The notes under the pieces were generated by a model, which was not told where the DNA came from, ran no database searches, and was given only the letters and a program-made list of their open reading frames with translations. Shown in pieces: positions 3,052-22,293 of a stretch of DNA of 24,102 bases; within the stretch, counting starts at the first letter, position 1, and every line of letters starts with the position of its first letter. The position numbers and the translations under genes are program-made. The stretch covers positions 1 to 24,102 of the forward strand of contig CAZOPG010000001.1 of the NCBI GenBank assembly GCA_964581585.1, given 5' to 3'. The stretch is from an uncultured Planctomycetaceae bacterium (GTDB lineage Bacteria; Planctomycetota; Phycisphaerae; Sedimentisphaerales; UBA12454).

Positions 3052-3136
3052 AATAAGAAGAGCTGTTTCTGCGGTTGTGGGTACAGTCGCTTGTTTTCAG
3101 TGGTGATAGAGCTGTTTTTTTGAGCATGGAGGCATT

Positions 3137-4441
3137 ATGAGAGTTATTGCGGTAATTAACCAAAAGGGCGGTGTTGGCAAAACGACGGTTTCTATCAACT
3201 TGGCCAGTTGCCTAGCGGAAGCTGGTAATCGCACTTTGCTGGTCGATATGGACCCTCAATCGCATTGCGCGGTGGGTCTGGCGGTTCCTGAAGAGCAGGT
3301 TGAGCAGAGTATTTACGATGTTCTGATAAGTGCCAGCAGAGACGAGTCGATCAATCTGAGTGAAATTCTCTGGGAGATATCCGATAGACTCTCGCTGGCC
3401 CCGGCCAGTATTGATCTGGCCGCTTTCGACCAGCAGATGTCAGGCATTATCGACCGTGAAAATAGTCTTGCCGAGGTCCTCAATCCAGTCAGCGGCAAAT
3501 ATGATTATGTCATCATTGATTGTCCGCCGGCAGTAGGGTTGTTGACGTTTAATGCAATTCGGGCAGCTACCGACGTAATTGTTCCGGTAGAAACAGGTTA
3601 CTTTTCGCTGCATGGGCTTAGCAAACAGCTCGAAACCCTGAACATTCTTTGTAAGCAGTGTTCTCAGCAGATCAATGTTATGGTTCTTGCCAGCATGTAC
3701 GATATTCGCACGAAAATGGCGAGAGAAATACTTGGTGAGCTTCGTAAGCATTTCTCTGAGAACATGTTCAAAACTATTGTTAATTTCAATACTAAGCTGA
3801 AAGAAGCGACCAGTCTTGGACAACCTGTGAATGAATATTACCCTACGTGTAAGGGGCACAAAGATTTCCAGGAACTGGCCAATGAGCTTACCAGTTCCGA
3901 TAGCAGTGTTAGCAGGCTTAGGCTTCCCGAAAGAGAAGTTGCAACTATCGAGCCCGCCACAAAGCCTAAAAAAGCTGTTGTGCCTTTGGCGAAAGAGAAA
4001 TTGGTATCACCCAGAGAAGAGACTATTCGTACGCTAAGTGACGAACTCGCGGCGATAGGCGCCTCTGCCGATGAGCTTCTGGGTACGATGGAAATTGAAA
4101 AGCAGAAAAAGCAAGCCCCTCTCGCTGCCAGCGCAACGCTCGATGAGAAACTTGCAAATTTCTATGGTATTCGTCAGAGCGGCGGTGCTGTGAGTTTCGT
4201 TACGCTTTATCCGCAAGCCAAGAATGTTCAAATTGCTGGAGATTTCAATAGCTGGCAGCCGGAACTGACGCCGATGCAAAATCTCAATGATGACGGCAAA
4301 TGGCAACTTACGCTTCCGCTTGGGCCGGGAAAATACCGGTATCGGCTGGTAGTTGACGGACAGTGGCAGCAGGATCCTTACAACGAACAGTTAGAGGTGA
4401 ATCCCTTCGGTGAATTCAACTCTATTGTTGAGGTAAAATAA
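3137..4441 (+). CDS. ParA/Soj-family ATPase fused to a C-terminal AMPK-beta/CBM48-type glycogen-binding domain
   Basis: Deviant Walker A NQKGGVGKTT, Walker A' VDMDPQ and Walker B YVIIDCPP, then a charged linker of about 90 aa. The C-terminus reads AKNVQIAGDFNSW...GKWQLTLPLGPGKYRYRLVVDGQWQQDPYN...NPFGEFNSIVEV. SD GGAGG. Confidence 0.9.
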   Translation: MRVIAVINQKGGVGKTTVSINLASCLAEAGNRTLLVDMDPQSHCAVGLAVPEEQVEQSIYDVLISASRDESINLSEILWEISDRLSLAPASIDLAAFDQQMSGIIDRENSLAEVLNPVSGKYDYVIIDCPPAVGLLTFNAIRAATDVIVPVETGYFSLHGLSKQLETLNILCKQCSQQINVMVLASMYDIRTKMAREILGELRKHFSENMFKTIVNFNTKLKEATSLGQPVNEYYPTCKGHKDFQELANELTSSDSSVSRLRLPEREVATIEPATKPKKAVVPLAKEKLVSPREETIRTLSDELAAIGASADELLGTMEIEKQKKQAPLAASATLDEKLANFYGIRQSGGAVSFVTLYPQAKNVQIAGDFNSWQPELTPMQNLNDDGKWQLTLPLGPGKYRYRLVVDGQWQQDPYNEQLEVNPFGEFNSIVEVK

Positions 4442-4503: not shown

Positions 4504-5139
4504 ATGATGGAACTGTTCCGAAGAGGCCTGTATGGTGTGTTGGCGGTTTTTATAATCGCTATGGCGGTTTCTTATCCCGTTTACGCGACACATCTTTATT
4601 CTTCCGGGGGTGATTTTGATTTAGCAATACCTCCGCAAGAGTTGGGTAAGGGCTGGATGGAAGATGCGACAATATTTGTGCTGACCAAGGGGGTGGTGTT
4701 TGATGTTGATATTGCGTTAAATCTTACACACAGCAGTGCCTGTGATCTGAAGATTTATCTTCAGAGCCCTGCCGGGACAAGGGTTTGTCTGAACCGGTAC
4801 GATGTGGACGATTTTATTCCTTTTGAGCAGGATTTTTTGTGGACAATATTTGATGACGAGGCCCAGGTTGCTATCGAAGAGGGACGTGCCCCTTTTACGG
4901 GACGGTTTCGTCCGAAATCGCCGGGGCTGCTGTCTGTGTTCGACGGTGAAAATACTTATGGGCTTTGGCGCATTCAGATTTATGACGCAGTCTATGTCAA
5001 TCGCGGGACGTTTCATAATGCTCGTCTGGATTTTGTTGTCAATCCTGAGCCAGGCACGGTTGTTTTTATGATAATGAGTGTATTTTGGAGAAAAGTACAA
5101 TGTCAAAGAAAAGCAAAGCGGCAAAAAAAGTTCTGTTGA
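4504..5139 (+). CDS. Exported proprotein-convertase P-domain protein with PEP-CTERM-like sorting tail
   Basis: Signal peptide (MMELFRRGLYGVLAVFIIAMAVSYPVYA). P-domain motifs LNLTHSSACDLKIYLQSPAGT and GRFRP...LSVFDGENTYGLWRIQIYD. C-terminal NPEPGT, a hydrophobic stretch and a basic tail. The ORF is open from 4483; ATG 4504 is the likelier start. Confidence 0.8.
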   Translation: MMELFRRGLYGVLAVFIIAMAVSYPVYATHLYSSGGDFDLAIPPQELGKGWMEDATIFVLTKGVVFDVDIALNLTHSSACDLKIYLQSPAGTRVCLNRYDVDDFIPFEQDFLWTIFDDEAQVAIEEGRAPFTGRFRPKSPGLLSVFDGENTYGLWRIQIYDAVYVNRGTFHNARLDFVVNPEPGTVVFMIMSVFWRKVQCQRKAKRQKKFC

Positions 5140-5888
5140 TAATTGTTGTTTTAATAATTCTTGTAATAATTATGATTTATTCTTTTGGTAATCAGATGCT
5201 CAAGGCCGGAATTGAAAGGGCGGCAACTAAAAGTCTAAATGTTGGGGTCGCTATCGATGATGTTGACCTCTCTATTCTTGGCGGAAAAGTTAAAGTTGAA
5301 GAGATTGTAATTGATAATCCACCCGGATATGAACATGATAAGTTGCTTGAAATCGATAAGGTCAGAGTCGCAGTTAGTATCGGCTCTTTTTTGAGCGATA
5401 CGGTCAATATTAAAGAAATTGTGCTTGACGGCATTGAGGTTGTAGTTGAACAAAAAGGGCTTAGTAACAATCTGCAAGAGGTTATTAAATCGATACCCAA
5501 GTCAAAGAAAAAAGAGGAAACTGAAACAAAAAAACCTGCGAAAAAGCTTCATATCGATAGCCTTGAAATTACGAATGTTACCGTTAAGGTTAAGCTTTTG
5601 CCGATTTCCGGCAAGTCTGATACGATCCCGCTGAAGCTTGCTCCTATCCGAATGACCGATCTCGGCGGTAAAGACGGGGTCGATACAGCTAAACTAACTG
5701 GCAAAATTCTATTGGCTATTACCAAAGCTATAGCTGAACAGGGCACCGAAGTTTTACCCACAGATATGATCGATGGGTTGGAAGATTCTCTGGCACAAGT
5801 TGCAGAATTAGCGGAAGAAGGAGAAAAACTTCTAAAAGAAGGTGAGAATATCATCGAGGGTATCAAGGGGCTATTAAAAGGTAAATAA
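5100..5888 (+). CDS. AsmA-like (DUF748-type) membrane-anchored protein
   Basis: Basic N-terminus, one TM anchor, then the pattern DVDLSILGGKVKVEEIVIDNPPGY...VNIKEIVLDGIEVVVE. GGAG SD before ATG 5100; the ORF is open from TTG 5085. Confidence 0.7.
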   Translation: MSKKSKAAKKVLLIIVVLIILVIIMIYSFGNQMLKAGIERAATKSLNVGVAIDDVDLSILGGKVKVEEIVIDNPPGYEHDKLLEIDKVRVAVSIGSFLSDTVNIKEIVLDGIEVVVEQKGLSNNLQEVIKSIPKSKKKEETETKKPAKKLHIDSLEITNVTVKVKLLPISGKSDTIPLKLAPIRMTDLGGKDGVDTAKLTGKILLAITKAIAEQGTEVLPTDMIDGLEDSLAQVAELAEEGEKLLKEGENIIEGIKGLLKGK

Positions 5889-7531: not shown

Positions 7532-8419
7532 ATGAGCGACTATCGTGTGAATCTTGATATTTTTTCCGGGCCTTTAGATCTACTGCTCTATCTTGTTCGC
7601 AAGGAAGAGGTGGATATTTATGATATATCGATTGCCAGTGTTACCACCGAGTATATTCGGTACGTTGAGGTTCTGAAGATGTTGAATATGGAACTGGCTG
7701 GGGATTTTTTGGTGATGGCGGCGACGTTGATGGAGATCAAGTCGGCAATGCTTTTGCCGGCGGACGAGATCGACGCTGTTGATGAGGAGCAGGGAGTTGA
7801 TCCGCGTAAGGAATTGATTCGGCAGCTTCTCGAATATAAAAAGTTCAAAGATGCCGCTAACATGCTCAAAAGTTCTTCTGATATTCAGGCTCAGCGTTAT
7901 CAACGCAGCGATGTGATTCTGACGCAGTTGGGTGATGAAACAGAGCCGGAAGTTGATATGGAACAACTCAGTATCTGGGATTTACTCAGTGCTTTCGATA
8001 CGGTTATGAAGTCGATTGGCACTGTGATGGATATCAGCCGTATCAGTGATGATACTCCGATTGATCTGTATCAGATTGAGATTTTACATCGTCTTCAGAG
8101 CGAAGGGGCTATGAGTTTTGAGCGAATTTTTGAAGGCAAAAAAAATAAACTTGTAATGATAGGTCTGTTCCTTGGGATCCTTGAGCTTGTGCGTGAAAAA
8201 CTTATTACCGCTGAACAATCTGAGGAAACAGGGGCGATATATCTGCGTTCGTTGACGGATATCCCGGCAGAAGAAGCGGTTCGCAGCGCAATTTTAACCT
8301 CTACCGATGAAGAAACTGCTGAGAAAGATGAGGTTCAGCAACCTCGAATTCGTATTGAAGAAATTCCCGCAGAAAAGATGCCGCAAGAGCAGGAAAATGT
8401 ACCCTTGAACGGTTCATAA
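7532..8419 (+). CDS. scpA: Segregation and condensation protein A (SMC kleisin)
   Basis: FSGPLDLLLYLVRKEEVDIYDI, AGDFLVMAATLMEIKSAMLLP, DPRKELIRQLLEYKKFK and FLGILELVR, plus an acidic C-terminal extension. Confidence 0.93.
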   Translation: MSDYRVNLDIFSGPLDLLLYLVRKEEVDIYDISIASVTTEYIRYVEVLKMLNMELAGDFLVMAATLMEIKSAMLLPADEIDAVDEEQGVDPRKELIRQLLEYKKFKDAANMLKSSSDIQAQRYQRSDVILTQLGDETEPEVDMEQLSIWDLLSAFDTVMKSIGTVMDISRISDDTPIDLYQIEILHRLQSEGAMSFERIFEGKKNKLVMIGLFLGILELVREKLITAEQSEETGAIYLRSLTDIPAEEAVRSAILTSTDEETAEKDEVQQPRIRIEEIPAEKMPQEQENVPLNGS

Positions 8420-10624: not shown

Positions 10625-12241
10625 ATGGTTGATAGCAAATCCAAGACGTTCGGTTTTGTTGCAAAGCTGCTTCGTTTGTTTTATCCACATTCGATGTCCC
10701 TGGCGGGTAAGTGCCGTCTCCTCTTTGGCGCAGCAGTTGTTCTGATATTAGCTCTGGCTCTGCTTATTCCATATTTCTGGATGGGCAAACTGACCGAAAG
10801 AGTAATGCTCGATTCGGGGCAGGCGGTTGTCAATACGGTTTATGAAAATCACTTTAAGTTTGATTCCCAACCCGGCGAGGGGCTTGTGTCTTTGGACGAG
10901 ACAGGCTCGGCGATAACTGTTTCTGATAGTATGGTCAAATGGCTGCGATTTGGGGATGAGAACCAAAAGCAGAATGTTGAATTTACAGAGAAACAGACCC
11001 AAGCCATTGAATCACTTAAAGACAATGAGCGAATTAATGCGACGGCTTGGACTCAAAAATATGATGGAGTTGCGAAAATAAATTATGTTAATATTGTCAG
11101 GGCTAACAAGAATTGCCTGCAATGCCATAATCCGGATGGTTCGGCTGCCGCTTTTAATCAGAATGAACCGGTCGGTGCTGTAATAGTCCGTATGCCTGGT
11201 GTGAAAATCAAAGAAACACTTTTGATAAATCGTATCTGTATTATTGCAGCCGGGCTGCTGGCCGGTGCCGGTGCGATCATAGCTTTTTATGTGATTGCTC
11301 AACGCGTTATCCTCAGTCCAATCAGACAACTGCGTGCACTGGTTACTAATGTTTCTGAGGGTAATCTCGAAGTTCGCTGCGGAATAAAAACCAATGACGA
11401 ATTTGAAAGGCTTGGCGAAGCACTTAACCAAATGCTTAATGGTCTGGCGGAGGGACAGGGGAAACTTCGCGAGGCAAACCGACAGTTAGATACGAAAATA
11501 ACTGAACTTTCGGACCGTAATATCGAACTTTTCAAAGCAAACAAACTCAAGAGTGAATTTCTGGCAAATATGAGCCATGAATTCAGAACGCCATTAAATG
11601 CGATCCTTGGCTTTGCTGAGATTTTGCACGAGAAGTCAGGCGATGATATTGCCAAGAGTAAACGATACGCTGAGAATATTATCAGCAGCGGACGTAGCCT
11701 GCTTGGTATGATTAACGATCTGCTTGATTTGGCAAAAGCTGAGGCTGGCAAAATCACACTACGTCCGGAAAATACGAATATTGTCGAACTGTGCAGGGGG
11801 CTTGTGGCGTTCTTTTCGCCATTGACAGAAAAGCAAAAGATTAAAGTTCGCCTTACTGGTGACGATAATATTCCGATTATCAGGACGGACCCGGGAAAAG
11901 TTCAGCAGATATTGTATAACCTACTCAGCAATGCAGTTAAATTTACCCCGGAAAACGGCAAAATTGAAATTAAGACAACTATGCCCGATGAGACCACCGT
12001 CCGTATCGCGGTGAGCGATACCGGGGGTGGGATAGCTGAGGCGGACAAGGAAAAAATATTTGAAAAATTCCGCCAGGGGGATGGCTCAATTACTCGCCAA
12101 ACAGAAGGTACCGGCCTTGGGCTGGCAATCAGTACCGAACTTGCCCAGCTTCTGAGCGGGGAAATATCTCTTAAAAGCGAGGAGGATAAGGGGTCAACAT
12201 TCTGGCTGGACCTGCCGGTTATTCGTGGCGAAGTGTCTTGA
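10625..12241 (+). CDS. Membrane sensor histidine kinase with a periplasmic c-type heme (DUF3365-like) domain and HAMP
   Basis: Two TM segments flank a domain containing CLQCH. HAMP (SPIRQL...DEFERLGEALNQM), H box MSHEFRTPLNAI, N box NLLSNAVKFT and G boxes DTGGGI / GTGLGL. An alternative start is ATG 10694. Confidence 0.9.
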   Translation: MVDSKSKTFGFVAKLLRLFYPHSMSLAGKCRLLFGAAVVLILALALLIPYFWMGKLTERVMLDSGQAVVNTVYENHFKFDSQPGEGLVSLDETGSAITVSDSMVKWLRFGDENQKQNVEFTEKQTQAIESLKDNERINATAWTQKYDGVAKINYVNIVRANKNCLQCHNPDGSAAAFNQNEPVGAVIVRMPGVKIKETLLINRICIIAAGLLAGAGAIIAFYVIAQRVILSPIRQLRALVTNVSEGNLEVRCGIKTNDEFERLGEALNQMLNGLAEGQGKLREANRQLDTKITELSDRNIELFKANKLKSEFLANMSHEFRTPLNAILGFAEILHEKSGDDIAKSKRYAENIISSGRSLLGMINDLLDLAKAEAGKITLRPENTNIVELCRGLVAFFSPLTEKQKIKVRLTGDDNIPIIRTDPGKVQQILYNLLSNAVKFTPENGKIEIKTTMPDETTVRIAVSDTGGGIAEADKEKIFEKFRQGDGSITRQTEGTGLGLAISTELAQLLSGEISLKSEEDKGSTFWLDLPVIRGEVS

Positions 12242-12281
12242 GCAAGGAGAATACGTCCCCTCGCCCCCGAAAACTGATCCA

Positions 12282-12320
12282 TTCAAAATTCGAAAAAAAT
12301 TGTTATAATTCGATTTTGAA
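12282..12320. terminator. AT-rich inverted repeat between convergent genes, possible terminator
   Basis: TTCAAAATTCGAA (12282-12294) and TTCGATTTTGAA (12309-12320), with one bulge. Confidence 0.3.
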
Positions 12321-12393
12321 AGGACCAAACTGCCGAAAATTCTCAATATTTAACAACTTCATGGTCTTTGATATGTAATTGCAGCGACACGAT

Positions 12394-14334
12394 TTATGGT
12401 TTGTGATTTTCCTCGGAATCTACCCAGCCGTCATCATGCGCATCTCGTTTTATAGTTCTCAAACGGCGGAACATTTTCCTGACATCTAACAATCCGCCTA
12501 TCGACATCCAGACTACCATGATTACTGCAAGGATAAGCGAAATTGGTATGTAATATTTCCAGTATGTCAGCCAGAATTGTTCACTGGTTCCAAATGCAAA
12601 GTGATAGATCGTGCCTACGATGAAAATCAGGAACCAGAAAGATGAAATGCCCAGAAGCGAGAAGAATATGACTTTATCTCCCCTGCTGAATTCTTTGCTC
12701 AAACCAAGTTTGGCCCATGCACTTTCTTTTTCAGAGGCTCCTTTGACGACATCACCTTCAACAGCATACTTCCCGCGATGCAGGAGTTTATCGAGATTGT
12801 ACTCTTTTTGTTTAGGGCCAAGAAGCGAAACGGTTACATATAACAGAGAAGCAACTAAGACGGCGATGAAGCTCATCTGCATACCGTTCAGGAAGAAATC
12901 GGGGTTAATTTGTGTTATGACTATGCCAGTTAGTGCCAGCGTCGAGCCGGCAATCATTGAACAAAATGCTGCCGGCGTGGTGCCCTTTTTCCAGTAGAGA
13001 CCGCCAAGCATAACCGCACCTGCTCCGCCGGTATAAATCGCACCAGTTATCGAGAACCACAGTAAAATAGCCTGGGTCTGTCTCCAGACCATACTAAAAG
13101 CAAAAATAAATATAGCCACACCGAGAATAGAGGCACGCAATAAATGCATATGTGTTTTTTCGCTGAACGGTTTTTTGCGGAACGGCATAACTACATCCTG
13201 TATAAAAATACTCCCCCATGAATGCATATAAGTATCGTGTGTGCTTATAAACGCCGCCAGGAACACCGCCGCGAAACAGCCCATCAAACCAACTGACAAC
13301 ATCTTGCTCATCATCACCGGGACTATCATCTGGCTACGAACCTCTTCATTCGCAATGGTGTCAAGAGTAGTGTTAATCTCCGATGCCAACGGTGTGAAGT
13401 TATTATGACGTAATATAACATATGCCGCTACCGGAACAATAAATGAGGTCGCGCCTCCCACCATACCTCGCAGCGATGCCAGGATACCGCCCATCTTTGC
13501 TTCGTGCGGCGTAAGAGCGGAACTGTTATAGCCTTGTGTTCCCTGCCATGTACGAGTGCCGTACAAGCTGATAGCTACGCCCATCACAAAATACCAGACG
13601 TTGAAGTCTTTGATACTCTCTCCCCGGAACGGATGGATCATATGGACGTTCTCAGGTTTTACAAGCACCTCTTCCATCGGAGCCCAACCCACTTTGAAGA
13701 AAATGAATACAACTATGCCAGTAAGAACAATGGAACAGAAGAAGGCCTGTATAAAATCTGTAATTGTTACTGCGATCTGGCCGCCCATATAGGTGAAATA
13801 TAGAGCTGCTATTAGAAGAACGGCCATCACAGTGGGATAGCTGGAAAGGGAGATTCCCAGAACATCAAAGGTTGGGGGAAATCCGCAGAAATGGATGAAA
13901 AACTTTGCACCAACTGCAGGGAAAATTCCAAAATTAAGGATACCCGAGCCAAAAATGATAAAGCCCATAAAGATACGAAATTTTCTGCTGTATCTTCGTT
14001 CAAAAAACTCCGCTATCGTCAACGAGCGGGTTTGCCGGAAACGGTATATTACAAACCCTGTAAGTGCCACAACAATACCGACCGGAATAGCCATACCCTG
14101 CCACCAGGACACGGTGAAGCCTGCCTGATAATACAGCTGATACATACCCACAAGTGAAATAGCCCCCATATTAGCCATGTCGCCGGATACAGTTAAAAGG
14201 TATCGGCCCGCACAACGATTGGCGGACAGAAAATCCGCTACACTTTTGGTGTATCTTCGCGTGTAAGTGGCAACGGCTGTAAGAGCAAAGAAGAACACTC
14301 CAATAATTAACCAATCGATCCAGTGTAAATTCAT
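12394..14334 (-). CDS. Sodium:solute symporter (SSS) family, probably a sugar importer
   Basis: 646 aa, many TMs. Motifs SVADFLSANRCAGR, TIAEFFERRYS, YTYMGGQIAVTITDFIQ, AAFISTHD and GLYWKKGT. Confidence 0.9.
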   Translation of the reverse strand: MNLHWIDWLIIGVFFFALTAVATYTRRYTKSVADFLSANRCAGRYLLTVSGDMANMGAISLVGMYQLYYQAGFTVSWWQGMAIPVGIVVALTGFVIYRFRQTRSLTIAEFFERRYSRKFRIFMGFIIFGSGILNFGIFPAVGAKFFIHFCGFPPTFDVLGISLSSYPTVMAVLLIAALYFTYMGGQIAVTITDFIQAFFCSIVLTGIVVFIFFKVGWAPMEEVLVKPENVHMIHPFRGESIKDFNVWYFVMGVAISLYGTRTWQGTQGYNSSALTPHEAKMGGILASLRGMVGGATSFIVPVAAYVILRHNNFTPLASEINTTLDTIANEEVRSQMIVPVMMSKMLSVGLMGCFAAVFLAAFISTHDTYMHSWGSIFIQDVVMPFRKKPFSEKTHMHLLRASILGVAIFIFAFSMVWRQTQAILLWFSITGAIYTGGAGAVMLGGLYWKKGTTPAAFCSMIAGSTLALTGIVITQINPDFFLNGMQMSFIAVLVASLLYVTVSLLGPKQKEYNLDKLLHRGKYAVEGDVVKGASEKESAWAKLGLSKEFSRGDKVIFFSLLGISSFWFLIFIVGTIYHFAFGTSEQFWLTYWKYYIPISLILAVIMVVWMSIGGLLDVRKMFRRLRTIKRDAHDDGWVDSEENHKP

Positions 14335-14368
14335 GGCTATCCCTTCTGAAGATTTAATTTCTATAACT

Positions 14369-16915
14369 TCATTTACGTCCTATCCATAGTGTGGCGTATT
14401 TGTCCTCGTAAAGTTTCCGAGGTTTTGCAGCCTCATAGCTTGATGGTTCCTGGCATGTATCGCAAGCTTTTTCGAGGCCGCTGGCGGTTAGAACAATATC
14501 GACGTTCGCATCGAGTGAAAGTGTTTCAATCTTTTGTGTCCATGGAGATAGAACTTTTATTTGCGTCGAGGCGCTGTTGCGAGATTTAAGTTTAATAAAT
14601 TCAACTTTGCCTATAGAAATTTTTGAAGATACAGCAATGTTTCCTTCCGCGACAAAATCTACAAATTGAGCATCCTTATCCTCTGGCCATCCGGGGAATA
14701 CTCGGATAAGGCCATTTTGACTTTGAAGCAGTGTTTCGGTAACCATAGTTAGATAATCGCTGCTTCCCTCTATCAAGGACACGCTGCGTTCTTTAGTCTT
14801 GATATTAGGGCTGGTTTTGTCACCATTGTGCCAGGGCTCCCGTTTCGGCATCATTTCATTTACATCTACTAAAGATTCATCAGGGATATTATTTATATTC
14901 TTTTCACTTAAATCACTTGGGCATACAACCGCTGCGTCATGACTAATCGTACCATTGGGCTTTGAATAGCATCGAAGGAACATCGGCAAATATAAATCCC
15001 AAAAATCATCTTTTCTTCCAAGACGCAGTGCCGTCATCGCCCGGAAGAAACACTGCCAGACACACCTGAAATAAAAACCCTCATCACAGGCGTATGAGGT
15101 CTCCGGTGTTTTCCAGAGAACAGAGTCCAACGTATCGTTGTACAATTTCACTTCTTCCGGGGTCGAGGCTGCATCTACCTGCCCACAGGGATAAACCGGA
15201 TACAGACAGCCTGCCTGACCGACATGATGGTTTGGGTCGATACCATCGCCATCCAGAATAATATTCCGTCCCTTGGCGTCTGTGCCTGTTGGATATGAAG
15301 GGAAGTTGTCCAAAACATCCTTCCATTGAGCCACATACGCGCCATTATCATTCAGTATTCCAGCAGCCTCGGTTGCGGTTTGCAGGCACACCTGCAATGT
15401 CGAAGTTGTCAACACGGCGTCTGCGACATCCGCAACATCAAGCTCACATGCGTGACAGGGCCATAAATGATATGTCCCATCTTCGTCTTTTTTCATAATG
15501 TTCAGATAGAAATCCAACACCTCTTTAAGGAACGGATAAATTTTTGTTCTTAGCTGCTCAACATCTCTGCGATAACGCCAGCAAAGACAGTGCATCAACG
15601 CTACATAGGAGCCGCCATAAAAGAAGCGATAATTTCCTACCCCCCCCATTACAGACTTACCAACAGCATTGAAACACATATCAAAATGAGCGCCGCTTAC
15701 GCCCCATATTTCCAAAGCAAGCCGGCGGGCTGTAGGCAGGAATGATTCGTACATGTCAAGGAAAGACTCAAACAATTCACTGTGATTCAGAGCATGAACA
15801 GGGTAGAACGGGCACTGTACATTAAGATCGTTATGCATATCACCTGTCCATGGACTGATTTGAACCGGGCCGGTACTTGGGCCATAAAGAAGCCCCAGCA
15901 ATCCAGGCATCGGCGCTTTCCTATAGTTGCTGCCGATTATATACAGTGAACTGTAGAATAGCTGCTCCAGGGCCTTGTCGCCGAGTTCTACCCACGATTT
16001 CTGCCAGTAATCGTGCCACCAGGTGGTGTGAGTTTTCTTTTGCTGTTCGTGGCTTTGGGCTATTATGCTATCCAGTTTTTCGTGTGCATGTTTAAGTGGA
16101 TCATCACATTCGCGGCCGGAGGCAACTGTGATAAAAACATCAAAATCGCCGGTTACACTTATAATGCCGAAACGGCCGACGACTTCGTTTTTTACCTGGC
16201 CTAATTCTGGTGGCCGCCATTTAGGACGCAACAATTTTTCAGTTTCGGCCCTTAAAGCATTCGATTTTCTGGGGATTACCTGGATAGCCGCGACATAATC
16301 GCCGCATTCGGGTACTGACATTTTCATTACAATACGCCCATTTTCACTACTAAGAACCGCTTCAGGCAGTTCGATGTCATAAGGCTTTGAAAAATACAGC
16401 TTTGTCATAAATGAAGACAGCGGTGAAACATCACGAACATTTATTACGAGTACATCTTCGGCGGCGTGCATGAACGATTCTACTTTAGGATGACAAAGAT
16501 GCTTATCAAGCTGCAAATATAAAGTGGCATCGTGCAGACTCATCCTGCTATGCACGTTCGGCGGAGCTGCCAGTGTGCCTGCCCCAGCACTGGTTGCAAG
16601 GTCCATAGTCAGAAGGCAGCAGCTCTTCGGGCCCAGACCTAATATTTCTGAGTTAATCATCTCCCTGTCACGGAAATCTCTTATGGAAGCTCCGTCGCGA
16701 ACCATCTGTTCGGCTTCATCGGGCGGTATTATCTCTCTAACATCATGAACTCTGCCATCGATTATATCCGTTTTATTCACCACCCACTGGAGGGACTGGT
16801 CGGCATAAAAGACAGAGCCCATACTTCCATTGCCGAGCAGAAAGCCGTCCTGCCAGCAGCTTGGCGGCGTTTCGTAAATAATGTCATATTGAGATATGAA
16901 TTTTTTCCAGTCCAT
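14369..16915 (-). CDS. GH95-like (alpha/alpha)6-barrel glycoside hydrolase, no signal peptide
   Basis: N-terminal WQDGFLLGNGSMG, then PMPGLLGL..W..DMHNDLNVQ, GVSGAHF, IYPFLKEVLDFY, and C-terminal IEG...ETLLQSQNGLIRVFPGWP...FVAEGNIAVS. All are GH95-type landmarks. Confidence 0.75.
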   Translation of the reverse strand: MDWKKFISQYDIIYETPPSCWQDGFLLGNGSMGSVFYADQSLQWVVNKTDIIDGRVHDVREIIPPDEAEQMVRDGASIRDFRDREMINSEILGLGPKSCCLLTMDLATSAGAGTLAAPPNVHSRMSLHDATLYLQLDKHLCHPKVESFMHAAEDVLVINVRDVSPLSSFMTKLYFSKPYDIELPEAVLSSENGRIVMKMSVPECGDYVAAIQVIPRKSNALRAETEKLLRPKWRPPELGQVKNEVVGRFGIISVTGDFDVFITVASGRECDDPLKHAHEKLDSIIAQSHEQQKKTHTTWWHDYWQKSWVELGDKALEQLFYSSLYIIGSNYRKAPMPGLLGLLYGPSTGPVQISPWTGDMHNDLNVQCPFYPVHALNHSELFESFLDMYESFLPTARRLALEIWGVSGAHFDMCFNAVGKSVMGGVGNYRFFYGGSYVALMHCLCWRYRRDVEQLRTKIYPFLKEVLDFYLNIMKKDEDGTYHLWPCHACELDVADVADAVLTTSTLQVCLQTATEAAGILNDNGAYVAQWKDVLDNFPSYPTGTDAKGRNIILDGDGIDPNHHVGQAGCLYPVYPCGQVDAASTPEEVKLYNDTLDSVLWKTPETSYACDEGFYFRCVWQCFFRAMTALRLGRKDDFWDLYLPMFLRCYSKPNGTISHDAAVVCPSDLSEKNINNIPDESLVDVNEMMPKREPWHNGDKTSPNIKTKERSVSLIEGSSDYLTMVTETLLQSQNGLIRVFPGWPEDKDAQFVDFVAEGNIAVSSKISIGKVEFIKLKSRNSASTQIKVLSPWTQKIETLSLDANVDIVLTASGLEKACDTCQEPSSYEAAKPRKLYEDKYATLWIGRK

Positions 16916-16929
16916 TTTTGCTCCAAAGA

Positions 16930-18978
16930 TTACTTTTTATAGGGAATACGAATTATCAAAGGCCTAAATGCCTCACAAAGGTGTTTTATCGTCCAGGTTT
17001 GCCGATTATCATTTGTTTGCTGAGAAGAGACATTCAACTTTTCTAATTTGCCCTGATCCGAGACATAAAGGGCTTTGTCGGCAGGCAGAGTGGTTTCGTG
17101 TACAAAGGTTACCTTGATTTCGGAACAAGAATCATAAGACGGATTGGTCAGGCACGCTGTCAAAATTTCGCCGTCATCCCAGCACTGTACAAAAAAGTCT
17201 GTAGGCTCTTCTACAAATACTGGCAAAACTGATTGGTCCATCCATTCGATTATTTTTCTCAGCATAAAGCCACGCTGATAACACAGCAAATGTCGAGCAT
17301 CACCGTCGTCGGCTGATATCCGATGGGGCAGCACAGCGACTTTGCCTCCACGTGAATTCTCATAAAGAACAACACCATTACAAACATCCTGACGCTCGGC
17401 ATCAACGATGGTAGAGATAACTTTTACATCTTTACAGCGTGGTAGCAGATTGGAAATACCATCTACGTTATTCTTAAGCGTTATGTAGGTATCGGTGTAC
17501 GGGCCGTTGAACTCTGCATCCTTACATTCCTCCGCCATCCAGGATTGGGGTGTCTCTCCGATAGTTACACCGATGTCATTGCTATAGCCTATATCCGCCA
17601 ATGTTTCGGCGGCGACGGCATCGAGAATTACGCCCTGGCTGAGAATCTTTTCTATTCTATCTTTGGATATCGCTCTGACGGAGTCGCCGGCCAAGAGCTT
17701 TACGGGGGATTCGTCAAGAGTATAACACAGGCCCAAGCCACCAAAAATTCTGGCCAGAACAAACGCCGGCCAAACCAGATCACTGGCGGCGTTTACTTTT
17801 AATTTTGACTCTTTCGCTGAGTTAAAATCAAAGATCATCTGTATGCCCTGCTTGGTACCGTTTTTGGGTCTTATCTTGTAAACCGTATCAAAGAATGGTT
17901 TTTCTTTTGGCAGGTTCTCGCGATATGCTGGCTCGATATCAACATGGTCACCTACATAGCCGGCTAGCGAAATCGCCATATTCGGCATCCCTTTCAAAAG
18001 CGATTGTAAAATATCAAATCGTACAACAGTCATACTTTTGGACATGCGAGTAAAGGGAGCTGTCTCTATCTCTGGTGTATATTCAAAATCCAGGCCAGAT
18101 AGATAATAATTTGTCATCTCCATATATATTGTACCTGCTGGAATTTGGCGGTGGTTGTCATCGGAATACGGGCCGATACAGGGTCGAATTATCGGCCTGA
18201 CACCATCTTCCAGCTTTTCGAGAACATTGGTCAGGGTATGACCTACGACCGGCAGCGGATGAACACATGGAACCATCATTCCCATCGCAATATCAGGATT
18301 AACCTCATGAACGGCACGAGCCAGGTCGTCTGCCCAGCCAACAAGACTTTCTCCGAGCATTTCAATCCATTGCTTTCTGGTATCAGGGTCGTTATAAAGA
18401 GCCCCTTTCAATTGTTCAGGGTTCCATTGCCGGCCGGTAACCTCAGAAAACAAGCTCAGATGTAACGGGCAGAAACAGCCCCAGTGCGTTTTAGTCGCTT
18501 CATAACGCAAATCATCATCAATGTAGAAATATTCGGGGTTACATTCAGCGTAAATTTTATATATCTCTAAGACGTGCTTTTTGAGAGCCGGGTCTGCGGG
18601 ACATGGACTGGTATAGGTGAATTGGCCGTCAACGTCGGTCTTCCAGTATTTAATATCGGGGAATCTCTCGCGGTGATCCCATCGGCACATATCCATCCCG
18701 AATGTAACGCCCATAAAGAGGCCGAGTTTTATGCCGTGTTTGCCGAGTTCTTCGCTTGCATATTTGAGCGTTTCGGTTTCTTTGCGGGCTATATCAGTGG
18801 GGATCATGTTCCAACCCATGTGCTGATGGGCACACATGAGCATTACATGCTCGGTGCCAGTAGCCTTGCAAAAATCGATCATTTCCCCGACTCGCTGCTC
18901 AGCGCACCAATACGGAAGATAATAGCGGAGAATATAATTAACGGTGTCAGGTTTAAATATACGTTTTTGTTTTGCCAA
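16930..18978 (-). CDS. Unclassified putative glycoside hydrolase (TIM barrel with GATase-like/trimerisation C-domain)
   Basis: 682 aa, no signal peptide. SPCPADP, YFYIDDDLRY, WGCFCPLHL and TPEIE, then a GATase-like region (RIEKILSQGVILDAVAA; YENSRGGKVAV). The family assignment is inferred. Confidence 0.55.
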   Translation of the reverse strand: MAKQKRIFKPDTVNYILRYYLPYWCAEQRVGEMIDFCKATGTEHVMLMCAHQHMGWNMIPTDIARKETETLKYASEELGKHGIKLGLFMGVTFGMDMCRWDHRERFPDIKYWKTDVDGQFTYTSPCPADPALKKHVLEIYKIYAECNPEYFYIDDDLRYEATKTHWGCFCPLHLSLFSEVTGRQWNPEQLKGALYNDPDTRKQWIEMLGESLVGWADDLARAVHEVNPDIAMGMMVPCVHPLPVVGHTLTNVLEKLEDGVRPIIRPCIGPYSDDNHRQIPAGTIYMEMTNYYLSGLDFEYTPEIETAPFTRMSKSMTVVRFDILQSLLKGMPNMAISLAGYVGDHVDIEPAYRENLPKEKPFFDTVYKIRPKNGTKQGIQMIFDFNSAKESKLKVNAASDLVWPAFVLARIFGGLGLCYTLDESPVKLLAGDSVRAISKDRIEKILSQGVILDAVAAETLADIGYSNDIGVTIGETPQSWMAEECKDAEFNGPYTDTYITLKNNVDGISNLLPRCKDVKVISTIVDAERQDVCNGVVLYENSRGGKVAVLPHRISADDGDARHLLCYQRGFMLRKIIEWMDQSVLPVFVEEPTDFFVQCWDDGEILTACLTNPSYDSCSEIKVTFVHETTLPADKALYVSDQGKLEKLNVSSQQTNDNRQTWTIKHLCEAFRPLIIRIPYKK

Positions 18979-18990
18979 AATTGCAGCTCC

Positions 18991-20163
18991 TTATTTTTTA
19001 ATTTTCCATTTCTTTTTCATAGCCAACATCTCTTTGTTTAGCTTGATTTTACGAGAGGTGATCTGATTTTTCTTATCATATATCCAGTTGCCTTGAATAT
19101 CACGCAATACTGGCATACGTTTGGCTACTGCCGGAACCTTCTTAGCTCGGCAGGGTTTGTCAGCGTACCAATACGCGGTACTGCTCATCTCATTACAGAC
19201 ATGATTGCCGTGGCCGTGCTCAATGGTAACCTTAATTTCCTTTTGAAATCGGACGGGGTTTTCGATGTGATGGACATAGCTGCTCTGGTAGCCTCCGCCG
19301 GTAGAGTGCCTCGGACAAAGTAAAGCATTTTCGCCCTGCAGGGTGTTCTTCTCAAAGATCGAGGAACCGTTATGCAGAAAGGCATTATCCTGCATTCCCC
19401 AAGCCTGATTGAGATAATCTTCTCCTCCGGTGCCATGCAGATCGGGTGGCCATTTATACCCGTCAACCCAGATCATATCATCGCCTTCACCCCACCAGGT
19501 ACCCTGAAAATTACTGACACTGATATTGCAGCCGATATAATGGCCGCGACCTTTGGTTTCAAGGATAACATAATTATTATCCCACGCAGTGCGCTGCTTG
19601 TTGGCAATATCTGCTTCCGGCGTGTTAACTAATATCTCATGTGCCCAGCCGCCAAATGGGTTTTCTCTGTGCCATTCGGTGTGGAAATAACCAACCCTAT
19701 CCGGAATTTCATCGTATGTTTCGTAGTCAACATAGAAAAATTGTCGGTGGTCTTCTTTGCTCTCATTGATAAGCTCTACTACAGCCCGCTTTGCAAAAGG
19801 CATCTGAACATAGCAGTTTAACGCACAGCCTTGATTAAACTGGTTGTCAAAAAGTGTTGATGCTGAAAATAGAAGGGACTGATAGGAATTGACTATCCCA
19901 TGGCCAAGACCAAAAAAATCGCCCAGCGGACAAAGCACGCTTGGGTACTTTGCATCATCCCAGGTTATTTTCAGCAAGCACTCGCGGTAGTGATTGGGCT
20001 GCGTCATCCATATATGCGTAATGCAGCCGGGGCCTTTGATGTCTGCCAAAACTTTGCTCTGGCCAGGCTTGATAAGCCAACTATCTGCGTTGCGTCCCGT
20101 TTTGTCCCAGGAAGAAAACCTTCCTGTTTTATGCCTCTTGATTTTTGTAAGTTCACTAAGCAT
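18991..20163 (-). CDS. DUF2961 / GH172-family glycoside hydrolase, no signal peptide
   Basis: RFSSWDKTGRNAD, GPGCITHIWMT, PLGDFFGLGHG, WWGEGDDM and HGTGGEDY (both putative catalytic Glu present), and VTIEHGHGN. Confidence 0.9.
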   Translation of the reverse strand: MLSELTKIKRHKTGRFSSWDKTGRNADSWLIKPGQSKVLADIKGPGCITHIWMTQPNHYRECLLKITWDDAKYPSVLCPLGDFFGLGHGIVNSYQSLLFSASTLFDNQFNQGCALNCYVQMPFAKRAVVELINESKEDHRQFFYVDYETYDEIPDRVGYFHTEWHRENPFGGWAHEILVNTPEADIANKQRTAWDNNYVILETKGRGHYIGCNISVSNFQGTWWGEGDDMIWVDGYKWPPDLHGTGGEDYLNQAWGMQDNAFLHNGSSIFEKNTLQGENALLCPRHSTGGGYQSSYVHHIENPVRFQKEIKVTIEHGHGNHVCNEMSSTAYWYADKPCRAKKVPAVAKRMPVLRDIQGNWIYDKKNQITSRKIKLNKEMLAMKKKWKIKK

Positions 20164-20184
20164 AATTAAAAAACCTTTTAGGTT

Positions 20185-20212
20185 AAGATGAGAATTTGTG
20201 TGAGTCTGTCAA
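20185..20212 (-). promoter_or_regulatory. Possible internal promoter upstream of GH172
   Basis: TTGACA (20212-20207), 16 nt, CATCTT (20190-20185). The -10 match is weak. Confidence 0.35.
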
Positions 20213-20223
20213 CTGTTTCAGAT

Positions 20224-21270: not shown

Positions 21271-21324
21271 AATATTGTCTCCGGAATTGAATATTTTTTT
21301 GAAAGAAAGGTTGGAACATTATTG

Positions 21325-22263: not shown

Positions 22264-22293
22264 TTTTTATCTCCTTGCTGAGTTGAATTATAT

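Follow-up and report, generated by a model that had tools for sequence, protein, structure and literature searches.

The fusion gene and its architecture

The window, i.e., the whole stretch of 24,102 nucleotides analysed here, originates from an uncultured member of the Planctomycetota and contains a gene in which a ParA-type ATPase is joined through a linker to a CBM48 module. The gene and its main parts are as follows:

3137..4441, + strand: ParA-linker-CBM48 fusion gene with an ATG start, 434 aa and a stop codon (open reading frame and two-module Pfam architecture)
3137..3907, + strand: Soj-type ParA ATPase module, aa 1–257 (Pfam AAA_31, PDB matches, AF2 model, Foldseek)
3902..4165, + strand: flexible linker, aa 256–343 (composition, pLDDT, motif conservation)
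4166..4438, + strand: CBM48/AMPK-beta-type module, aa 344–434 (Pfam, phmmer, pLDDT, conservation)

That both modules are encoded by a single open reading frame had been proposed in the original prediction, and both score above the Pfam thresholds. All the motifs quoted there were located, KGGVGKT (aa 10–16), MYDIRT (187–192) and NTKLKEA (218–224) in the ParA part, and GDFNSW (368–373), GKW (387–389), YRLVVDGQW (402–410) and NPFG (422–425) in the C-terminal domain. The Walker A motif begins at residue 10, leaving no signal peptide, and the ligand of the fusion must therefore be intracellular. The architecture is far beyond chance, since the identical two-module layout recurs in hundreds of genomes. 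Scans for promoters and terminators around the gene gave counts not above those obtained with shuffled sequences; a hairpin at positions 3071–3090, between the upstream helicase gene and the fusion gene, can be considered a lead only.

The ParA module

The N-terminal module matches the Pfam families AAA_31 (aa 1–180, E 1.4e-52) and CbiA (aa 4–231), and its top sequence matches in the PDB are chromosomal ParA/Soj proteins: 8ray (1.8e-50), TtSoj of T. thermophilus (1wcv, 3.8e-41) and HpSoj of H. pylori (6iub, 8.5e-37), all by phmmer. The AF2 model has a pLDDT of 70–93 across this module, and a Foldseek search with the full-length model returned Soj structures as the best matches, at 1e-24 to 1e-20 and with target-normalised TM scores of 0.83–0.89. 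With the NCBIfam model ParA_partition (NF041546) the fusion scores 108.3 bits, below the cut-off of 180. The catalytic motifs are located at:

3164-3184 (aa 10–16), + strand: deviant Walker A, KGGVGKT
3245-3259, + strand: Walker A' with D37 and D39 (DMDPQ)
3512-3529, + strand: Walker B with D128 (IIDCPP)

K10, G11, G12, K15, T16, D37, D39, Q41 and D128 are invariant in 134–135 of 135 divergent members of the family. The module can thus be regarded as an intact ParA ATPase, as originally claimed, with the signature lysine and the Walker A' and Walker B aspartates all in place, and the invariance of the catalytic residues makes the predicted ATP-dependent dimerisation well supported.

Two surfaces of the module deserve separate attention:

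3707..3862, + strand: alpha8-alpha10 basic surface, the candidate non-specific DNA-binding patch (Soj alignment)
3263..3304, + strand: loop between alpha2 and alpha3 (L23), aa 43–56, HCAVGLAVPEEQVE (HpSoj alignment)

The first contains the basic residues R191, K193, R196, R203, K204, K220, K222, K239 and K242, and its dense basic character persists across the divergent family. Residues of the fusion were mapped onto TtSoj by HMMER alignment, and the equivalences among the patch residues of TtSoj, B. subtilis Soj (BsSoj) and HpSoj have been published (PMC6393308). R191 corresponds to TtSoj R182 and BsSoj R189, and K220 to TtSoj R211 and BsSoj R218, so that the earlier assignment of basic residues to these two BsSoj positions was correct; R203 aligns with TtSoj R194. 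Three of the four positions of the TtSoj patch (R182/R194/R208/R211) are thus basic in the fusion, the HpSoj patch consisting of K199/K227/K230/K247, and on this retention DNA binding by the fusion is plausible. The fourth, normally highly conserved position (HpSoj K227, BsSoj R215, TtSoj R208) is occupied by Phe217, and in the clade of the window the ATP-contacting proline preceding it is replaced by Asn216; with both conserved sites changed, DNA binding in this clade could therefore be weakened or altered. The Phe217 substitution had been overlooked in the original prediction.

L23 corresponds to the clamp of HpSoj for the N-terminal peptide of ParB, in which L50, G51, F52, R53 and K56 make the contacts (PMC11229316). 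It belongs to the most conserved segments of the fusion: 10 of its 14 residues are invariant in the clade alignment and two further ones nearly so, and among the 135 divergent family members H43 is found in 134, G47 in 127, L48 in 125, V or I at position 50 in 127, and P51 in 100.

The CBM48 module and the linker

CBM48 domains bind glycogen. The C-terminal module of the fusion matches both AMPK1_CBM (aa 360–434, E 8.3e-13, 48.8 bits against a cut-off of 26.8) and CBM_48 (aa 351–415, E 3.2e-10, 40.6 bits against a cut-off of 22.4) in Pfam, and its closest sequence relatives are the AMPK beta2 and beta1 CBM structures (3e-8 to 1e-7, phmmer). A residue-by-residue alignment to 1z0n equates W373, R403, W410, F424 and N428 with the AMPK beta1 sugar-contact residues W100, K126, W133, L146 and N150. 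Across 135 divergent members, W373 is retained in 134, R or K at position 403 in 132, W410 in 129, F, Y or L at position 424 in 110, and N or D at position 428 in 117. The aromatic motifs first recognised in this domain are therefore accompanied by sugar-contact positions that are under strong purifying selection in about 135 divergent members, and since all five of these positions are conserved, glycogen binding by the C-domain is a well-supported prediction. The AF2 model shows six beta-strands in this domain (pLDDT 80–92); the top 50 hits of the fold search, for which the query was the full-length model and not the C-domain by itself, were all ParA matches. In the Sedimentisphaerales, glycogen-type CAZyme clusters are commonly predicted (PMC11266412).

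The linker of 88 aa is 32% charged with a net charge of 0, and in the AF2 model the pLDDT falls below 50 at aa 256–291 and 321–332. It contains one structured element:

4010-4108 (aa 292–324), + strand: clade-specific conserved linker helix (AF2 helix, motif conservation)

The helix carries the motif L..EL.AI..SA.ELL, in which A311, E313 and L314 are invariant in the clade. Its role as a family-wide interaction motif was rejected, as it is confined to the clade of the window; beyond this clade the linkers range from 6 to 282 aa, are rich in Ala, Pro, Glu and Ser, and do not contain the helix motif.

Distribution and phylogeny of the fusion family

Relatives turned up in at least 564 stretches of species-representative genomes, and the best 80 of them, from Phycisphaerae/Sedimentisphaerales, are all full-length fusions. 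The ParA and CBM48 architecture is shared by all 120 of the 120 best database matches, and a domain-architecture search, the check suggested along with the original prediction, found both modules in 141 of the 150 best cluster representatives at 50% identity. Hundreds of Planctomycetota species have retained the family, which is large, ancient and phylum-wide. A full-text literature search retrieved no description of a ParA-CBM48 fusion, in agreement with the initial statement that no characterised example was known.

In a subsampled tree the fusion ParA modules form a separate clade in 100 of 100 bootstraps. They are 35–40% identical to canonical ParAs, compared with 43–67% for canonical ParAs across phyla. 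This separation fits a specialised paralogue and a divergent orthologue equally well. Two complete chromosomes, CP070728.1 and OY775912.1, place the fusion gene 137 kb into a record of 2.27 Mb and 115 kb before the end of one of 4.90 Mb, distances that are suggestive of proximity to oriC only if the records start at dnaA.

Genetic neighbourhood and partner genes

The absence of parB noted earlier holds for the entire 24-kb window, as judged by Pfam searches with all large open reading frames and a tblastn probe, and no parS with up to three mismatches is present in it. A parB gene is likewise absent from beside the fusion in 79 of the 80 clade loci. In one lineage only (loci L077, L081, L086 and L119), parS and parB immediately precede the fusion gene, giving the order parS-parB-fusion; the chance of such adjacency in one of 80 lineages was roughly estimated at about 0.04.

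The clade does encode ParB. Nearly all of about 30 clade ParB loci examined contain one or two canonical parS sites 100–600 bp upstream, and the protein retains the sequence KPKHLGRGLxSLLGPI, the N-terminal ParA-stimulating peptide. In six such loci with flanks of ±6 kb, tblastn revealed no plain parA on either side of parB, and a scan for KGGxGK[ST] in 46 loci of ParB relatives (L081-L126) identified the fusion as the sole deviant-Walker-A ATPase beside any clade parB. The clade of the window thus possesses an intact but solitary parS-parB locus, not accompanied by an adjacent plain parA.

Partner genes occur elsewhere in the phylum. Two divergent lineages have, immediately downstream of the fusion, a gene whose product starts with MKRKKLGRGI or MEKKRKLGRSL, i.e., with a ParB-like peptide, which suggests that the fusion family responds to an activator of this type. 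The pairing of the fusion gene with an uncharacterised gene, partner X, is conserved in the long-linker Planctomycetota subgroup (L132-L135 and a fifth contig). The downstream partner proteins in these other subgroups match no Pfam family; a reading of partner X as a degenerate ParA-like pseudo-ATPase was considered and rejected (hhalign probability 0.1%, no PDB relative). Neither an LGRGL-type open reading frame nor a homologue of partner X was found near the fusion in the clade of the window, and no recurrent cytoplasmic partner was present within ±6 genes of the fusion in the 80 clade loci.

The designation of the fusion as an orphan and self-contained system is accordingly doubtful, given the solitary parS-parB with its conserved ParA-stimulating peptide, the adjacency of parB and the fusion in one lineage, and the conserved downstream partner gene in other Planctomycetota subgroups. 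On these grounds the ATPase is likely to have an external activator, and the fusion may be a ParB partner, not a ParB-independent cargo system.

No glg or other CBM48 genes accompany the fusion in the window, in 1.5 Mb of locus sequence or among the listed genes of the fifth long-linker contig, and no glg genes are linked to it in the 80 clade loci or in eight contexts of divergent members. The neighbours in the window (DEAD helicase, TrpRS, ScpA, AspRS and others) are syntenic in none of the 80 loci, so the ScpA gene 3 kb downstream can be considered coincidental. Distant ParA-like matches upstream in loci L002/5/8/11/12 proved to be Wzc-type tyrosine autokinases and are irrelevant. The recurrent neighbour at position +1 in the clade is a P-domain protein (18 of the 80 loci), predicted to be exported, for which the NCBIfam models gave no PEP-CTERM match.

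Proposed mode of action and alternative explanations

The fusion can be viewed as a Soj-like ParA ATPase of the cytoplasm with a permanently attached glycogen-binding module, a combination that probably ties the sugar store of the cell to the chromosome. In the ATP-bound state two ParA modules would form a sandwich dimer through the signature lysine, and the basic alpha8-alpha10 surface of the dimer would make non-specific contact with the DNA of the nucleoid. A single dimer would display two CBM48 modules on flexible tethers of about 90 residues, gripping glycogen particles, and many such dimers would keep glycogen on the nucleoid surface, so that the store would be spread along the chromosome and co-inherited with it. 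ATP hydrolysis, with an N-terminal LGRGL peptide of the ParB type docked on the L23 loop as its most likely trigger, would free the tether. As chromosomal, parS-bound ParB is the sole known source of this peptide in the clade, the fusion probably also acts as the partner of ParB in chromosome segregation, or takes the place of that partner. The steps that we infer are binding to DNA and, in vivo, to glycogen, activation by ParB, and tethering or segregation as the outcome, and the overall reading of a nucleoid-bound dimer that tethers glycogen to the chromosome, is released most likely by a ParB-type peptide and is probably also a ParB partner seems to us evenly balanced between right and wrong. 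This mechanism would account for tethering but not for true positioning, because with the cargo-binding element fused to the ATPase the usual cargo-generated ParA depletion gradient cannot form. That parB adjoins the fusion in a single lineage, and that no glg gene is linked to it in any of the loci covered, also speak against this reading.

A bolder version of the tethering model, which is possible but for now rather doubtful, would hold that in Phycisphaerae, and perhaps in most Planctomycetota, the glycogen-binding ParA is the only partner of the solitary parS-ParB, so that chromosome segregation is mechanically coupled to the inheritance or sensing of glycogen. If so, glycogen granules would ride on, or gate, the ParABS machinery. 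Planctomycetota lack FtsZ, divide in unusual ways and have an atypical cell biology. A fusion that is also a ParB partner would mean a rewired ParABS system in such a phylum, with parS-parB devoid of an operonic parA, and would connect carbon storage directly and physically with chromosome inheritance.

An unlikely alternative is the strict form of the original prediction, i.e., a ParB-independent, self-contained orphan system with a fused adaptor that positions or segregates glycogen granules and has no role in chromosome segregation. It would agree with the absence of parB or parS from the window and 79 of the 80 clade loci, with the monophyly of the fusion ParA modules, which are further from canonical ParAs than those are from each other, and with the partner gene of the long-linker subgroup, reminiscent of dedicated orphan systems such as McdAB. 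However, ParA-family ATPases need an activator; relatives of the fusion have partners, two of which start with a ParB-like peptide, but the clade of the window shows none of this kind around the gene, and its ParB keeps the ParA-stimulating peptide with no other known ParA and adjoins the fusion in one lineage.

Regulation instead of tethering is envisaged in a further alternative, for which we see only a slim chance: a partition ParA, possibly involved in replication control, could use CBM48 as an AMPK-like regulatory input that links the carbon reserves with chromosome segregation or with the cell cycle, glycogen or maltodextrin binding sequestering the ATPase or modulating it. AMPK beta CBMs, the nearest relatives of the C-domain, are glycogen sensors in eukaryotes. 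The evidence for a partnership with ParB (adjacency, solitary parS-parB, conserved peptide) applies to such a sensor as well, and the clade-specific linker helix could pass a signal or dock on the ATPase. Linkers that vary so widely in length and are not conserved across the family are more in keeping with a passive tether than with allosteric coupling, however, and the model predicts no confident contact between the CBM and the ATPase (low-pLDDT linker, pTM 0.56).

CBM48-like E-set folds can also mediate protein contacts, but that the C-terminal beta-sandwich recruits the ATPase to a non-glycan target such as an envelope or division component, as the missing linkage to glg genes and the recurrent P-domain neighbour might suggest, is very improbable, since the conservation or conservative replacement of all five AMPK beta1 sugar-contact positions would be hard to explain without glycan binding, and the fusion is cytoplasmic, in contrast to the predicted export of the P-domain protein.

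Comparison with known systems

The fusion shares with the chromosomal ParA/Soj proteins of B. subtilis, T. thermophilus and H. pylori the deviant Walker A with its signature lysine, the A' and B motifs and the fold, as well as the U-shaped L23/L34 region, which in Soj binds the N-terminal peptide of ParB. As in ParABS systems, canonical parS and ParB are present in the clade, and the candidate DNA-binding patch is basic at three of its four positions. Unlike chromosomal Soj, the fusion has an added linker and CBM48, lies outside a parA-parB operon in the window, belongs to a separate clade with the moderate identity given above, and carries Phe at the K227/R215-equivalent position and Asn in place of the adjacent Pro.

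With respect to its C-terminal part, the fusion resembles AMPK beta1 and beta2 in that its CBM48 lies at the C-terminus and displays the sugar-contact set W/K(R)/W/L(F)/N. The plant PTST proteins combine a coiled coil with a C-terminal CBM48, and the fusion is similar to them in that a helix-containing spacer and a C-terminal CBM48 would bring a partner activity to alpha-glucan. In contrast to AMPK and PTST, this activity would be a predicted DNA-binding partition ATPase, not a kinase or starch synthase, in a bacterial, cytoplasmic protein.

The tethers PhaM of Ralstonia eutropha and PhaF of Pseudomonas putida, histone-like or phasin proteins with no ATPase activity, attach PHB/PHA granules to the nucleoid. 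The concept is the same, one protein on both DNA and a carbon-storage granule, so that granules are distributed with the nucleoid, but there is no homology, and the attachment by the fusion would be nucleotide-switched.

ParA/MinD ATPases are a general bacterial means of placing large cytoplasmic objects, as exemplified by the orphan systems in which the adaptor is a protein of its own, McdA-McdB for carboxysomes, and ParC-ParP and PpfA-TlpT for chemoreceptor arrays. To our knowledge, every ParA/MinD case studied uses a separate adaptor and none serves polysaccharide stores, and the distribution of glycogen between bacterial daughter cells is essentially unstudied; in the fusion family the cargo-binding element is built into the ATPase. 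As in the orphan systems, the ParA-type ATPase encoded in the window has no linked parB, and the nucleoid would be its matrix for handling a non-DNA, cytoplasmic cargo; relatives in other Planctomycetota have a dedicated downstream partner as McdAB-type systems do. The differences are that the cargo would be a polysaccharide, that no adaptor gene lies beside the fusion in the clade of the window, and that the cargo-binding element resides on the ATPase here and on the activator in McdAB-type systems. McdA itself is 21% identical to the fusion (E 6e-15, Foldseek), which is much closer to Soj.

Architecture and surroundings of the ParA-CBM48 fusion

The protein begins with a ParA/MinD-type P-loop domain (Pfam AAA_31, aa 1-180, E 1.4e-52; CbiA, aa 4-231), followed by a spacer of 88 residues (aa 256-343, 32% charged, net charge 0) and a C-terminal region matched by both AMPK1_CBM (aa 360-434, E 8.3e-13, 48.8 bits against a cut-off of 26.8) and CBM_48 (aa 351-415, E 3.2e-10, 40.6 bits against 22.4); the overlapping matches are two models for one glycogen-binding fold. 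The ORF and the Pfam matches confirm the originally predicted order of ParA module, charged linker and glycogen-binding domain, and all the motifs quoted in that prediction are found at the expected positions. Since the Walker A strand opens the protein and a signal peptide is absent, the fusion is cytoplasmic. The main features of the window are:

3137..4441, plus strand: ParA-CBM48 fusion gene, ATG start, 434 aa
4483-5139, plus strand: exported P-domain protein, 218 aa (proprotein-convertase P-domain, Pfam 8e-10)
5085-5888, plus strand: AsmA/DUF748-like N-terminal ORF, 267 aa, well below the 600-1200 residues of the family profiles
7532-8419, plus strand: ScpA (SMC kleisin), Pfam 5.8e-38, 3 kb downstream of the fusion
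Further annotated ORFs, plus strand: class-IV aminotransferase, DEAD-box helicase, TrpRS, thioredoxin, AspRS, histidine kinase
12394-23868, minus strand: SSF sodium:solute symporter, GH95-like protein, DUF2961 protein, AAT-like acyltransferase fold, CBM9-like protein, and two ORFs of 682 and 524 aa without a Pfam match

Apart from the fusion, the window is ordinary chromosomal DNA. As had been noted from the sequence, it contains no ParB gene, and no parS site at up to three mismatches. The P-domain and AsmA-like ORFs overlap by 55 bp as listed, and their true starts are uncertain because both have a TTG start; the AsmA-like gene could be a short variant or truncated. The tail of the P-domain protein is PEP-CTERM-like by eye (NPEPG, a hydrophobic stretch and a basic end), with no NCBIfam match. 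The minus-strand block resembles a glycan-utilisation cluster. GC skew turns from positive to negative at about 12200-12400, where the plus-strand genes (to 12241) meet the minus-strand genes (from 12394), and its cumulative maximum lies at about 12-13 kb; the probable cause is coding-strand bias where the two gene sets converge, rather than a replication landmark.

A large and old planctomycetal family

All of the 120 best database matches share the two-module architecture (59-85% identity, 396-470 aa); their named carriers are Phycisphaerae, Sedimentisphaerales, Anaerohalosphaeraceae or Planctomycetota MAGs, and their annotation goes no further than 'AAA family ATPase' or 'chromosome partitioning protein'. 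When one genome was scanned for each GTDB species, at least 564 stretches were found to encode relatives; the best 80 of these, two complete chromosomes among them, all carry full-length fusions from the window's own Phycisphaerae/Sedimentisphaerales group (hereafter the clade). Of 1.84 billion 50%-identity cluster representatives searched exhaustively with HMMER, 2,939 matched below 1e-30; the domain-architecture search proposed earlier finds both modules in 141 of the 150 best representatives, joined by about 15 to 290 linker residues, and the divergent members bearing names are again from Planctomycetota. A neighbour-joining tree unites the ParA modules of 46 sampled fusions in a monophyletic group apart from seven canonical ParAs in 100/100 bootstraps, which points to a single ancient fusion passed down through the phylum. 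ParA-CBM48 is thus a large, old family, not a chance fusion.

Synteny around the gene is poor. Across the 80 clade loci the window's housekeeping neighbours recur nowhere else, and no recurrent ParB-like or glycogen-related neighbour was found; the proximity of ScpA looks coincidental, being conserved in 0/80. The only frequent +1 neighbour is the P-domain protein (18/80 loci, the window included); its homologues occur in 20/80 (18 by clustering), mostly immediately downstream of the fusion, and it is unlikely to be a cytoplasmic partner. ParB and glg genes are both absent from the contexts of eight divergent members. Carriers of the fusion plausibly make glycogen, which anammox planctomycetes reportedly store. 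Sedimentisphaerales are commonly predicted to have glycogen-type CAZyme clusters (PMC11266412).

The ATPase module and its DNA-binding patch

In sequence and predicted structure the ParA module is nearest to chromosomal Soj-type ParAs. Phmmer against the PDB returned 8ray (1.8e-50), Thermus thermophilus Soj (3.8e-41) and Helicobacter pylori Soj (8.5e-37), and Foldseek with the AlphaFold2 model (pLDDT 70-93) matched the Soj proteins of Bacillus subtilis, H. pylori and T. thermophilus at 1e-24 to 1e-20 (target-normalised TM 0.83-0.89), with McdA at only 6e-15 and 21% identity. The module is 35-40% identical to canonical ParAs, which share 43-67% among themselves across phyla; by these comparisons it is Soj-derived, yet a clearly separate lineage. 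In 134-135 of the 135 members of a divergent family alignment the signature lysine K10, Walker A residues G11/G12/K15/T16, D37/D39, Q41 and Walker B D128 are unchanged, so ATP binding, sandwich dimerisation and hydrolysis are expected.

The experimentally defined DNA-binding patch comprises K199/K227/K230/K247 in HpSoj, with counterparts R182/R194/R208/R211 in TtSoj and R189/K201/R215/R218 in BsSoj (PMC6393308). Mapped by HMMER alignments, the fusion keeps R191 (TtR182, BsR189), R203 (TtR194) and K220 (TtR211, BsR218), so that the two basic BsSoj positions named in the original prediction, R189 and R218, hold as R191 and K220. At the highly conserved K227/R208/R215 position, whose residue in HpSoj (K227) links ATP and DNA binding, the fusion has Phe217, and Asn216 takes the place of the ATP-contacting Pro just before it; both substitutions are fixed in 57 clade sequences ('VNFNTKLKE' versus 'IPRNVRLSE'). 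The near-universal I-P-[KR]-[SN]-V-[KR]-L has thus become V-N-F-N-T-K-L in the clade (window 3785-3799, plus strand, aa 217-221), and the wider family mostly has I-R-R-D-V-K-L. Further basic residues surround the patch (K193, R196, K204, K222, K239, K242), and a basic surface is maintained family-wide although positions drift. DNA binding is therefore plausible but not certain.

The CBM48 module and the linker

In phmmer, residues 360-434 align with the carbohydrate-binding modules of AMPK beta2 and beta1 at 3e-8 to 1e-7; matches to the CBM48 of pullulanases and GlgB are weaker. The modelled module is beta-rich (pLDDT 80-92). The five sugar contacts of AMPK beta1 in the 2005 structure, W100, K126, W133, L146 and N150, align with W373, R403, W410, F424 and N428 in the 1z0n register (chain position + 67). 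In the 135 divergent members, the conserved positions and their counts are W373 (134), Y402 (135), R/K403 (132), W410 (129), D413 (134), N416 (129), F/Y/L424 (110), G425 (130) and N/D428 (117). Purifying selection has acted on precisely the glycan-contact residues of a protein located in the cytoplasm, which argues strongly that the module binds an intracellular alpha-glucan, i.e., glycogen.

Within the clade the linker contains a predicted long helix (aa 292-324) with the motif L..EL.AI..SA.ELL (A311, E313 and L314 invariant), which was not found outside the clade; there the linkers are Ala/Pro/Glu/Ser-rich, unconserved and 6-282 residues long, and a flexible tether fits such sequences better than an allosteric connector.

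A solitary parS-parB locus in the clade

One clade locus, L077 (1-1282), carries a bona fide ParB (ParB_N, HTH_ParB and ParB_C; N-terminus KHLGRGLQSLLG) preceded by non-coding DNA, with the fusion gene 323 bp after parB. A further 46 loci around ParB relatives were then gathered. Clade ParBs, 64-100% identical to that of L077, are represented by about 30 loci, six of them with flanks of +-6 kb; in these six, tblastn found no plain parA near parB, and in a motif scan no deviant-Walker-A gene other than the fusion adjoins any clade parB. The order parB-fusion recurs in three more loci (L081, L086, L119), which together with L077 represent one lineage. In other lineages, with ParBs about 40% identical, a classic parA lies immediately upstream in six loci (L109, L114-L116, L121, L124). 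In the clade that position is taken by canonical parS, present as one or two sites (TGTTTCACGTGAAACA, 0-1 mismatch) at a distance of 100-600 bp from parB; solitary parB with upstream parS is seen in L081-L105 and in L077. This seems to be an undescribed, rewired ParABS layout, parS-parB without an adjacent plain parA.

Every clade ParB has the strongly conserved N-terminal peptide KPKHLGRGLxSLLGPI. Such peptides stimulate the ParA ATPase, and in H. pylori Arg9 docks on ParA loop L23, contacting L50/G51/F52/R53/K56 (PMC11229316). The corresponding loop in the fusion (aa 43-56, HCAVGLAVPEEQVE) hardly varies within the clade, and family-wide it ranks among the most conserved parts of the ATPase (H43 134/135, G47 127, L48 125, V/I50 127). 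Clade genomes thus have a ParB-parS system that looks functional, with a ParB built to act on a ParA, and across the loci around fusion and parB the fusion is the only Soj-like ParA found. The description of the protein as an orphan stands for the window itself, but is doubtful for the clade, in one lineage of which the fusion directly adjoins parB.

Divergent relatives with partner genes

In two short-linker relatives (L130, L131) a gene 12-25 bp downstream encodes a Pfam-less protein starting MKRKKLGRGIEDFIG and MEKKRKLGRSLDDVADL, respectively. A long-linker subgroup of Planctomycetota shows the gene order RsfS - AroB - fusion - partner X in L133, L134, L135 and, from the gene listing without sequence, the contig of protein P0275; partner X likewise lies directly downstream of the fusion in L132, as in every case found. 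ClpX follows on the opposite strand in L134 and L135.

Genes downstream of divergent fusions (locus coordinates)
L130 7122-8108; L131 4354-5259: Pfam-less proteins with a ParB-like peptide start, otherwise unlike ParB
L132 2453-4567; L133 7971-9686; L134 7827-9404; L135 7806-9338: partner X, Pfam-less, 510-704 aa

The first two are candidate dedicated activators, in which a ParB-like activating peptide would sit on a non-ParB protein. The four sequenced copies of partner X are homologous to one another (1e-10 to 1e-45); they share the motif L[AT]DLFL at the N-terminal end and a conserved domain, CPYxPE...GRLHLL, at the C-terminal end; no homologue is detectable in the window or the 80 clade loci, and no relative in the PDB. 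A likeness of partner X to ParA was considered and is not detectable. These partner genes show an external factor to be the rule in the family, against the earlier idea of a self-contained system.

Proposed function and alternatives

The fusion is most likely an ATP-switched tether linking nucleoid and glycogen. ATP-bound dimers on DNA would display two CBM48 modules on long flexible arms; multivalent binding would keep glycogen particles on the chromosome surface, to be spread and inherited with the chromosome; and a ParB-type peptide would trigger hydrolysis and release the glycogen. The trigger in the window's clade is most probably the chromosomal ParB, and the chance that the fusion there also serves as the functional ParA of a ParABS system falls just short of even. 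As the glycogen-binding element sits on the ATPase and not on the activator, no classic cargo-driven depletion gradient is expected, and hence tethering or hitch-hiking rather than equidistant positioning.

The main alternative is a dedicated system independent of ParB, which in all its versions together is possible but distinctly doubtful; for it speaks that, given their partner genes, some subgroups at least resemble two-gene systems. Its strict partner-less form, as originally proposed, is unlikely. Glycogen sensing as in AMPK, a regulatory role, is a weaker reading than the tether, as is a non-glycan ligand, against which stands the selection on the glycan contacts.

The proposed tether resembles Soj in its ATPase, its DNA matrix and its site for the ParB peptide, McdA and other orphan cargo ParAs in its non-DNA cargo, CBM48 targeting proteins (AMPK beta, plant PTST) in its C-terminal glycan anchor, and the PHB-granule tethers PhaM and PhaF in its predicted outcome. 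The fusion has the catalytic residues and fold of the ParA family and the sequence hallmarks of CBM48; it scores below an NCBIfam equivalog threshold, lacks in the window the operon of a chromosomal ParA and, unlike McdAB-type systems, has no separate adaptor gene beside it in the clade loci. The full-text literature searched contains no description of such a protein, in line with the original prediction, and the sequences sit in public databases under generic names. Being phylum-wide, unstudied and directly testable, ParA-CBM48 is of high interest.

Of the two complete chromosomes, one (L050, CP070728.1, 2.27 Mb) has the fusion gene 137 kb from coordinate 1, the other (L034, OY775912.1, 4.90 Mb) 115 kb before its end. 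Both places fall within 2-6% of the record start and would be close to the origin only if the records begin at dnaA. Among the best search matches there is also a protein of 1,812 aa without a ParA domain (P0128), which carries 17 tandem CBM48-like modules (aa 333-1806) and would be a giant multivalent glycan binder.
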